A DNA stretch of 64,000 bases, taken from assembly GCA_903831455.1 (NCBI GenBank), contig CAIKXV010000029.1, positions 1,340-65,339 of the forward strand, written 5' to 3'. The translations under genes were made by a program, and so were the position numbers. The notes below the pieces were generated by a model that was given only the letters and a program-made list of their open reading frames with translations, was not told the origin of the DNA and did not search any database. Every line of letters starts with the position of its first letter. Within the stretch, counting starts at the first letter, position 1. Origin of the DNA: an uncultured Pseudomonadota bacterium. GTDB taxonomy: Bacteria > Pseudomonadota > Gammaproteobacteria > Burkholderiales > CAIKXV01. Below are positions 38,578 to 38,712 of the stretch, one piece after another.

Positions 38578-38712
38578 AAAAAACCCTGGCAGGAGGGGAG
38601 TCCTGCCAGGGCCGAAAAGTGCCTTAAGGGGGTTAAGGCTCCCGCTCAGGGAGGTGAAGCGGGAGACGAGGTCATCGTCAAGGACTCAGACCCGCGGCCG
38701 GCGGGGAAGTTC
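38578..38712 (-). ncRNA. Candidate small RNA with three hairpins and C/U-rich loops, ending in an intrinsic terminator. The 5' end is uncertain.
   Basis: Minus strand: CTCCCGC-UUCACCUCCCUGA-GCGGGAG (38640-38665); GCCTTAA-CCCCC-TTAAGGC (38621-38639); CCCTGGCAGGA-CUCCCC-TCCTGCCAGGG (38584-38611) followed by TTTTTT (38578-38583). Both flanking genes are on the plus strand. Confidence 0.35.

Follow-up and report, generated by a model that had tools for sequence, protein, structure and literature searches.

A predicted anti-hemB/ncS04-family small RNA with a conserved sigma-E-type promoter motif in the engB-hemB spacer of an uncultured Burkholderiales bacterium

The spacer between engB and hemB in a contig of an uncultured Burkholderiales bacterium (CAIKXV010000029.1, positions 1,340 to 65,339; this stretch of 64,000 nucleotides (nt) is referred to as the window) raises the question of whether the strand opposite to both genes encodes a small RNA (sRNA), and if so, to which family the sRNA belongs and what transcribes it. 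An initial annotation, made from the sequence alone, had placed a terminator-ended sRNA gene of roughly 90-135 nt on the minus strand between the two genes. It had likened the RNA to the toxic small RNAs (tsRNAs) of Betaproteobacteria. The gene itself is borne out by a match to a known Rfam family and by a terminator on that strand, and the predicted length of about 103 nt falls inside the proposed range; the likeness to tsRNAs does not hold. The best explanation overall, to which we give a probability of roughly 0.6, is that the spacer encodes a sigma-E-driven sRNA of the anti-hemB/ncS04 family, which would base-pair with its targets through an anti-Shine-Dalgarno (anti-SD) loop and would have the hemB leader as an additional antisense partner.

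Family and structure of the small RNA

Positions 38400-38950, with the spacer, were scanned against all Rfam families on both strands at E≤10 with permissive filters, and the whole window was scanned at the gathering threshold. Positions 38576-38666 of the minus strand match RF02837, anti-hemB (Burkholderia RNA 7), over model positions 1-81 of 81, with 68 bits (gathering score 49.5, E = 8e-16). This is the sole gathering-level Rfam match in the 64 kb, and we regard membership of the element in the anti-hemB/ncS04 family as close to certain. The element is real but already catalogued, and is not novel.

The anti-hemB motif was described in 2007 by Weinberg et al., with the strand left undecided and comparable covariation both ways; these authors proposed that in the anti-hemB direction, in which it is terminator-ended, the motif encodes a non-coding RNA (PMC1950547). 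The homologue in Burkholderia cenocepacia J2315, ncS04, is an RNA of 105 nt located between hemB (BCAL0264) and engB (BCAL0265) and antisense to both, and was detected by differential RNA sequencing (dRNA-seq) and Northern blot (PMC5688073, PMC4603805). It is reported to co-purify with Hfq (PMC4603805). Low-salinity isolates have been linked to the family in a 2026 preprint, whose authors also raise antisense control of hemB as a speculation. The sRNA gene as first annotated is a rediscovery: its family is already curated and backed by experiment, and the value of the finding is mainly one of annotation. New, as far as the searchable literature shows, are a conserved sigma-E-type promoter, a conserved 5′ hairpin, and a resolution of the strand question. 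The predicted RNA and its elements are as follows.

38576-38680, minus strand: predicted anti-hemB/ncS04-family sRNA, about 103 nt (RF02837; covariance model R1, see below); 5′ end (38680 ± 2) inferred, 3′ end in the U-run 38578-38576
38665-38679, minus strand: H0, 5′ hairpin GACGA / loop UGACC / UCGUC (fold prediction; outside the Rfam model)
38641-38663, minus strand: H1, stem CCCGCU/AGCGGG with exposed loop UCACCUCCCUG (38657-38647), the putative anti-SD seed (sequence, Rfam, fold)
38621-38639, minus strand: H2, stem GCCUUAA/UUAAGGC, loop CCCCC (fold)
38614-38620, minus strand: U-rich single-stranded linker ACUUUUC between H2 and the terminator, candidate Hfq contact (sequence)
38578-38613, minus strand: H3, intrinsic terminator with a stem of 11-13 bp, loop CUCCCC (38600-38595) and U6 tail (38583-38578) (terminator scan)

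The H3 stem is formed by CCCTGGCAGGA (38611-38601), which pairs with TCCTGCCAGGG (38594-38584). In a terminator scan of 38400-38950 the sole terminator-like site is 38613-38582 on the minus strand, with 13 pairs including G.U, followed by a T-run. With the T-run, it corresponds to the 11-bp GC stem and T6 that the initial annotation had described as functional on the minus strand only. The 7-bp hairpin with a CCCCC loop drawn in that annotation is present at 38639-38621. Its third hairpin exists as well, at 38663-38641, but the conserved form has a 6-bp stem, and the 7-bp stem with a 13-nt loop represents an alternative register. To these three a fourth hairpin, H0, is to be added at the 5′ end of the RNA. 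The reported co-purification of ncS04 with Hfq (PMC4603805) makes the U-rich linker a candidate site of Hfq contact, by analogy.

The J2315 table of transcription start sites (TSSs) has a secondary 5′ end at 292987, 38 nt inside ncS04. By count this end falls in the CCUCCC loop, and it may represent a processing site or a shorter isoform.

Two coding readings were set aside. An open reading frame (ORF) of nine codons inside the RNA (38675-38646, minus strand) has its start codon in the variable H0 loop and is unconserved in the homologue alignment; it reads ATG ACC TCG TCT CCC GCT TCA CCT CCC TGA and is probably meaningless. The other, an ORF of 51 amino acids at 38646-38801 (minus strand), starts upstream of the promoter.

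Homologous loci and covariation

Homologues were collected by an exact-pattern scan with the H1 core CCGCNTCNCCTCCCTGNGCGG, one genome per species being used. At least 120 loci were found, and loci of 8 kb were fetched; they are cited below by L numbers, and all counts of loci are counts among the matches listed. About 104 are true instances, as shown by a downstream terminator, and come from Burkholderiales, Rhodocyclales, Methylophilales, Hydrogenophilales, a Neisseriales-like group (Vogesella) and a few Gammaproteobacteria. About 15 are chance matches in coding DNA of unrelated phyla. A covariance model comprising all four hairpins (R1) was built, and an alignment of 89 sequences was made from it. 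R1 matches once in each true locus, in none of the chance loci, and once in the window (38576-38682, minus strand, 83.8 bits).

Separate folds of 24 diverse homologues display the same four hairpins in all 24. In the 89-sequence alignment 96.3% of the cells form standard pairs, compared with 34-50% in controls whose 3′ side is slid by 1-3 columns, and two-sided changes are found in 452 cells vs. 111 ± 12 in shuffles. A model-fitted alignment favours the structure, and it should be noted that the seed alignment made with MAFFT only is already 91% paired, vs. 29-56% in slid controls. Compensatory changes occur at every pair of H0, H2 and H3, i.e., at 7 of 7 model pairs in H0 (93.4% of cells paired), 8 of 8 in H2, and 8 of 8 in H3 (98.5% of cells paired). 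The covariation check that had been suggested for the stems thus shows strong covariation in H0, H2 and the terminator, and an invariant H1 stem; this invariance is partly a product of selection, as 4 of the 6 H1 pairs are fixed by the retrieval pattern. RNAalifold, applied to a plain MAFFT alignment of 102 sequences, recovered H1 and the terminator's base but none of the other helices, and a covariance-model alignment is needed to see these.

The H1 loop reads UC(U/A)CCUCCCUG in 87 of the 89 homologues. This invariance is also partly by selection; the Rfam consensus independently gives the H1 loop in upper case. The terminator loop contains CCCC, mostly in the form UCCCCUUU, in 55 of 89 sequences. 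Conservation is lacking in the H2 loop, which is C-rich in only 15-21 of the 89, and the linker between H2 and H3 is U-rich in homologues. The proposal that C/U-rich loops resembling an anti-SD sequence are exposed is therefore borne out for the H1 and terminator loops. Of the three C-rich loops proposed, that of H1 is conserved as C-rich, that of the terminator is so in most lineages, and the CCCCC loop of H2 is specific to its lineage.

Strand of the conserved structure and distinction from tsRNAs

Folding energy alone has no power to choose the strand, as the plus strand (z = -3.96) folds nearly as well as the minus strand (z = -4.58). The wobble pairs are more informative. Cells with G.U, which is allowed as a pair only on the anti-hemB strand, number 137, vs. 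17 cells with A.C, which would be G.U on the hemB strand. In addition, the U-run follows the stem on the minus strand only, and the promoter described below points in the minus-strand direction. Thus the selected structure belongs to the minus, anti-hemB strand. This bears directly on a plus-strand interpretation, in which the 5′ untranslated region (UTR) of hemB contains the conserved structure as a cis-regulatory element, the "hemB motif" of Weinberg et al., and the minus-strand reading is secondary. Such an element would be in keeping with the plus-strand fold, with the comparable covariation seen by Weinberg et al. in both directions (PMC1950547), and with transcription of the J2315 hemB leader through the region. 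It is already disfavoured, and is very unlikely in view of the wobble count, the position of the U-run, the fixed distance and direction of the conserved promoter, the occurrence of copies with no hemB downstream, and the experimental detection of the minus-strand RNA as a discrete 105-nt species in B. cenocepacia. The initial annotation had itself raised the possibility that the structures belong to the hemB 5′ UTR; the selected structure, the terminator and the promoter are all on the sRNA strand, and what remains of that possibility is that the J2315 hemB leader crosses the region on the other strand. A further plus-strand candidate, the Betaproteobacteria-1 RNA (RF02932), scored 14.9 bits against a gathering score of 49.4 (E = 2).

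Membership in the tsRNA family (RF02278) has a negligible probability. The two RNAs do share a C/U-rich loop motif of the CUCCUCC type: most homologues have the H1 loop UCUCCUCCCUG, and the tsRNAs ncS03, ncS05 and ncS27 contain GUCUCCUCC. Both kinds are short and terminator-ended, are found in Betaproteobacteria, expose CU-rich motifs resembling an anti-SD sequence, and have been proposed to occlude ribosome-binding sites. The motifs of the window RNA (CACCUCCC in H1 and CUCCCC in H3) and that of H1 in most homologues (CUCCUCCC) are tsRNA-like yet not tsRNA-specific. The Rfam scan that the initial annotation had proposed did yield a known sRNA family, but it is RF02837 with 68 bits; no covariance-model match to RF02278 was seen, either in 38400-38950 with the cut-off relaxed to E≤10 or window-wide at the gathering threshold. 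The number and arrangement of hairpins and the genomic context also differ, with four hairpins and about 103 nt here as opposed to 59-92 nt in tsRNAs. Where both occur they are separate genes, and ncS04 and the tsRNAs are separate RNAs in the same B. cenocepacia study.

Promoter and 5′ end

Upstream of H0 on the minus strand are two elements of a promoter of the sigma-E/AlgU type, i.e., of group ECF02 of the extracytoplasmic function (ECF) sigma factors.

38707-38713, minus strand: -35 element GGAACTT, sigma-E/AlgU (ECF02)-type promoter (sequence, homologue comparison)
38686-38690, minus strand: -10 element TCTGA, 16 nt after the -35 element (sequence, homologue comparison)

The motif agrees with the published AlgU consensus GAACTT-N16-17-TCtgA (PMC3819740). 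GAACTT-N16-TCTGA is found once in the 64 kb, where 0.03 occurrences are expected. Of the 103 homologous loci, 68 have the strict motif AAC(C/T)T-N16/17-TCnnA at a distance of 44-66 nt upstream of H1, whereas shuffled upstream regions would give 0.17 and random windows taken from these loci 0.05. A spacer of 16 nt is seen in 47 instances and one of 17 nt in 21. Culturable carriers of the canonical promoter among the loci include Paucimonas lemoignei DSM 7445, Aromatoleum toluvorans, Methylovorus mays and Vogesella. Positions that the search left unconstrained are conserved too (G at -2 in 57 of 68, T after AACTT in 61 of 68), and the homologue consensus is G(G/A)AACTTT-N16/17-TC(T/A)(T/G)A. Several more loci are one base off the strict motif, e.g., with AACTA or AACAA. 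The ECF02-type motif is thus conserved across several betaproteobacterial orders. It is kept in loci without hemB (L035, L044, L045, L059, L070 and L005), and therefore belongs to the sRNA and not to a hemB operator. A betaproteobacterial sigma-E is known from Bordetella: this SigE is active on the E. coli rpoHP3 promoter and able to substitute for E. coli rpoE, and its purified holoenzyme has been used for transcription in vitro. The promoter specificity of sigma-E is therefore conserved in the class. As judged from the motif, transcription of the sRNA from a sigma-E-type promoter, and its dependence on sigma-E, are likely.

From the position of the -10 element and the 5′ end of J2315 ncS04, the 5′ end of the window RNA is predicted near 38680 ± 2, 1-2 bases before H0. 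The mapped 5′ end of J2315 ncS04 is CGAGCGG...; comparison with homologous Paraburkholderia sequences puts it 5-6 nt downstream of the TCATA that corresponds to the -10 element. These positions replace those of the initial annotation. Its promoter TTGCCG-17-CAAGTT gives way to the conserved element GGAACTT-N16-TCTGA (38713-38686), and its 5′ end near 38712 falls on the -35 element. A sigma-70 promoter scan of 38400-38950 had no match. TTGACG at 38681-38676 was considered as a sigma-70 -35 element; the start would then fall inside H1, and TTGACG is part of the conserved H0 stem.

The promoter type is not universal across the family. In the clade of Burkholderia, Paraburkholderia, Pandoraea and Caballeronia the promoter is GAAACTT-N17-TCATA overlapped by a sigma-70-like TGGTATATCAT, and some members are without the -35 element. 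The overlapping element is strongly conserved as TGGTATAT(C/G)AT. None of the conditions under which ncS04 was followed in J2315, a strain with this variant promoter, is a specific inducer of sigma-E. Burkholderia, the genus in which the RNA has been studied, may be atypical, and the variant promoter could explain the flat expression of ncS04 there.

Several observations on upstream regions and on sigma factors stand beside these results. The upstream element of this Burkholderia-related clade reads GAAACTTTTCGAGACAATGGTATATCATA and is distinct and strongly conserved, with a -10 that resembles sigma-70 TATCAT or an extended -10; it is seen in L034, L041, L047, L048, L064, L071 and others (Paraburkholderia), in L037, L083 and L089 (Pandoraea), and in L033, L053 and L058. 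L073 (6100-6271, plus strand) is from a metagenome-assembled genome (MAG) labelled Patescibacteria, in which this otherwise betaproteobacterial sRNA has a perfect sigma-70 promoter, TTGACA-N17-TATAGT, and no ECF motif; this reflects either a promoter swap or a contaminated bin. About ten MAG loci from Burkholderiales encode, at a distance of 2-3.5 kb from the sRNA, distant ECF sigma factors with about 30% identity to E. coli RpoE and with Sigma70_r2/r4_2 domains (L076:7611-7970, plus strand; L022, L113, L079, L004, L038, L104, L097, L086 and L069). In L076 the gene comes after engB and three cytochrome c genes. A gene of this kind could encode a cognate sigma factor or be a coincidental neighbour. 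No ECF sigma gene of that kind is present in the window.

Proposed mode of action and relation to hemB

In the proposed mechanism, minus-strand transcription would initiate at GGAACTT-N16-TCTGA, with a start near 38680, and stop at the terminator (38613-38578) to give a four-hairpin RNA of about 103 nt. Envelope stress, by freeing sigma-E, would turn the sRNA on. Hfq would probably bind the U-rich linker (38620-38614) and the U-tail. The H1 loop UCACCUCCCUG would pair with Shine-Dalgarno regions of target mRNAs and repress their translation in trans, and the CUCCCC terminator loop may also contribute to target pairing. The H1 loop shares UCACCUCC with the 3′ tail of 16S rRNA, GAUCACCUCCUUA. 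The chances of an anti-SD mechanism, as suggested by the loop sequences, are about even. In its favour, the weak covariance-model matches below threshold are confined to other, unrelated sRNAs with C-rich loops (ar14, ar7, sX13, LhrC and 6C). The authors of the ncS04 work suggested occlusion of ribosome-binding sites as the action of some of the sRNAs in that work. In addition the sRNA is perfectly complementary to a hemB leader, or to engB-hemB read-through RNA, crossing the spacer, and may in this way couple envelope stress to haem synthesis.

The antisense relation is best documented in J2315. There hemB has its primary TSS at 293115, 5 nt beyond the stop codon of engB, which gives a leader of 248 nt ahead of the hemB start codon. 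This leader spans the whole of ncS04 (292949-293053) on the opposite strand. As both strands are transcribed in J2315, a cis-antisense interaction is physically possible. In other taxa no conserved hemB promoter is recognizable in the engB 3′ ends, and thus the overlap of sRNA and hemB leader is shown in one species only. In the window, the terminator scan of 38400-38950 found no plus-strand terminator after engB, and in many other genomes the engB stop codon abuts or overlaps the sRNA terminator; transcription that comes into hemB from upstream therefore has to pass through the sRNA gene.

Two alternatives bear on how the sRNA is controlled and on how it acts. The RNA could be mainly or only a cis-antisense regulator of hemB, such that full-length pairing with the hemB leader or with engB-hemB read-through alters stability or translation, and the C-rich loops are incidental. 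The complete overlap in J2315 and the transcripts that must cross the sRNA gene would fit this, as would the retention of sRNA-hemB synteny in 89 of 104 loci from several betaproteobacterial orders and the antisense control of hemB likewise proposed in the 2026 preprint. Yet antisense pairs need no sequence conservation, whereas here the H1 loop hardly varies and conservation extends to the terminator loop, and structure is selected on the sRNA strand; moreover the sRNA and its promoter persist without an adjacent hemB (in Methylophilales and others, with 8 loci having neither hemB nor engB), Hfq binding is typical of trans-acting sRNAs, and a conserved hemB promoter upstream of the sRNA was not recognized in other taxa, so that the overlap is shown for the one species. 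A mainly or exclusively cis-antisense role is less likely, and the essentially invariant H1 loop together with survival of the RNA away from hemB argue for an additional function in trans. Less likely again is an sRNA of the kind described whose promoter does not depend on sigma-E, either because another ECF sigma factor reads the motif or because expression is constitutive. An AAC-containing -35 element is common to many ECF groups, about ten loci encode a distant ECF sigma factor near the sRNA, sigma-70-like elements occur in the Burkholderia clade and in L073, and ncS04 expression is flat. The full motif, including -10 TCTGA and the 16/17-nt spacing, however matches the RpoE/AlgU (ECF02) consensus specifically (PMC3819740), ECF02 promoter specificity is conserved in a betaproteobacterium (Bordetella SigE), and the nearby ECF gene is found in a minority of loci only and is absent from the window.

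Several points weigh against the explanation by a sigma-E-driven sRNA with an anti-SD loop. Sigma-E dependence is read from a sequence motif alone, the strict form of which is missing in about a third of the instances, and at least one of them, L073, is preceded by the sigma-70 promoter given above. No rpoE orthologue, on whose autoregulated promoter the motif could be calibrated, was found in the window or in the fetched loci. In J2315 the expression of ncS04 was flat across the conditions tested, and published expression and Hfq association of the family are those of the B. cenocepacia homologue only. The retrieval pattern fixes most of H1, so that H1 conservation in the set is not independent and divergent members are left out. 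No targets were identified: a hybridization scan within the window gave no discrimination, with 1346 sites at ≤ -14 kcal/mol in this GC-rich DNA, and its only outlier is the RNA's own antisense site. The literature searched, the coverage of which is incomplete, held no report of a link between sigma-E and anti-hemB/ncS04, and this amounts to absence of evidence only.

The sigma-E hypothesis is the part of this work that merits an experiment. If the promoter is functional, the family gains a regulator and a physiological setting, that of envelope stress; the principle that sigma-E needs sRNAs in order to repress would extend from Gammaproteobacteria to Betaproteobacteria, and anti-hemB would there fill the role of MicA, RybB, MicL and ErsA. 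The sigma-E reading, if true, would also explain the null expression results in Burkholderia. In its widest form, which we put forward tentatively and at somewhat less than even odds, anti-hemB/ncS04 is a conserved sigma-E (ECF02)-dependent sRNA of Betaproteobacteria and the missing repressing, non-coding arm of their envelope-stress response. It would act through a 16S-like anti-SD loop in trans and as an antisense RNA to the hemB leader, and so would link envelope stress to haem and cytochrome supply. Burkholderia would be an exception that has drifted to a sigma-70-like promoter, hence the lack of regulation seen there.

Comparison with known small RNAs

The window RNA matches the full anti-hemB model above the gathering threshold and has the same position relative to hemB and engB, antisense to both, as ncS04. 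H1 has the same CCUCCC loop, H2, the U-rich linker and the intrinsic terminator are all present, and the length of about 103 nt compares with 105 nt for ncS04. There are also differences. The window promoter is GGAACTT-N16-TCTGA, as opposed to GAAACTT-N17-TCATA overlapped by TGGTATATCAT in the Burkholderia clade. H0 has 5 bp in the window, vs. a hairpin of about 25 nt in ncS04, and is omitted from the Rfam model. The window has CCCCC as its H2 loop, and its C-rich terminator loop (CUCCCC) is typical of members outside Burkholderia and absent in Burkholderia.

Sigma-E/AlgU-dependent sRNAs are known from Gammaproteobacteria, e.g., MicA, RybB and MicL in E. coli, VrrA in Vibrio and ErsA in Pseudomonas. 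MicA-type sRNAs use 5′-end or single-stranded seeds against specific mRNAs, those of outer-membrane proteins or lpp, whereas the window sRNA shows a generic anti-SD sequence in hairpin loops. The gammaproteobacterial sRNAs share with the RNA described here the predicted promoter type, and are likewise Hfq-associated, terminator-ended and about 100 nt long. They form the repressing, non-coding arm of a sigma factor that by itself only activates, and the same role is suggested for the window sRNA. There is no homology in sequence or structure, and none of those families was matched in the Rfam scan. The sigma-E dependence of MicL is documented (PMC4102768).

A likeness in design is seen with other sRNAs that have C-rich loops, namely ar14 and ar7 of Alphaproteobacteria, sX13 of Xanthomonas, LhrC of Listeria and 6C of Actinobacteria. 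These consist of several hairpins with CCUCC(C) or CCCC loops followed by a terminator. The similarity to them is weak and below threshold (ar14 29 bits, ar7 21, LhrC 20, sX13 19 and 6C 18, with gathering thresholds of 47-110 bits); membership fails for each, and the likeness is one of design and not of descent.

Gene order and neighbouring genes

The genes on either side of the sRNA were identified by profile matches.

37891-38538, plus strand: engB/yihA (TIGR03598, 216 bits), convergent with the sRNA
38822-39835, plus strand: hemB, porphobilinogen synthase (NF006762, 494 bits), divergent from the sRNA promoter

The spacer is 283 bp long, and both its length and the plus-strand orientation of the two flanking genes are as initially annotated. 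The order engB hemB with the sRNA antisense, as in the window, is found in 84 of the 104 homologous loci. In Methylophilales (L035, L044 and L045) the sRNA is away from hemB and engB and the ECF-type promoter is kept. Its neighbours there, as we recognize them from the protein sequences, are presumably a gene for a UvrD-like helicase on one side and, on the other, groEL (L035) or a gene for a lipoprotein with an OmpA domain (L045).

In many loci (e.g., L007, L022, L063 and L090) the sRNA terminator and the engB stop codon, on opposite strands, are adjacent or overlap, which leaves next to no spacer between the two convergent genes. The distance between the engB stop codon and the sRNA terminator is about 40 nt in the window (38536-38584). 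The surroundings (33843-39835) are rich in haem and cytochrome genes: hemL, which ends at 36887 (plus strand), is followed by a gene for a dihaem cytochrome c (36935-37810, minus strand) and then by engB, the sRNA and hemB. An identical HemB is found on metagenome or MAG contigs only (e.g., GCA_046317895.1); the MAG contigs share this gene order and continue with genes for a PilZ-domain protein and a PBP1A-type protein. The nearest HemB among the fetched loci has 78% identity and is from a Thauera MAG.

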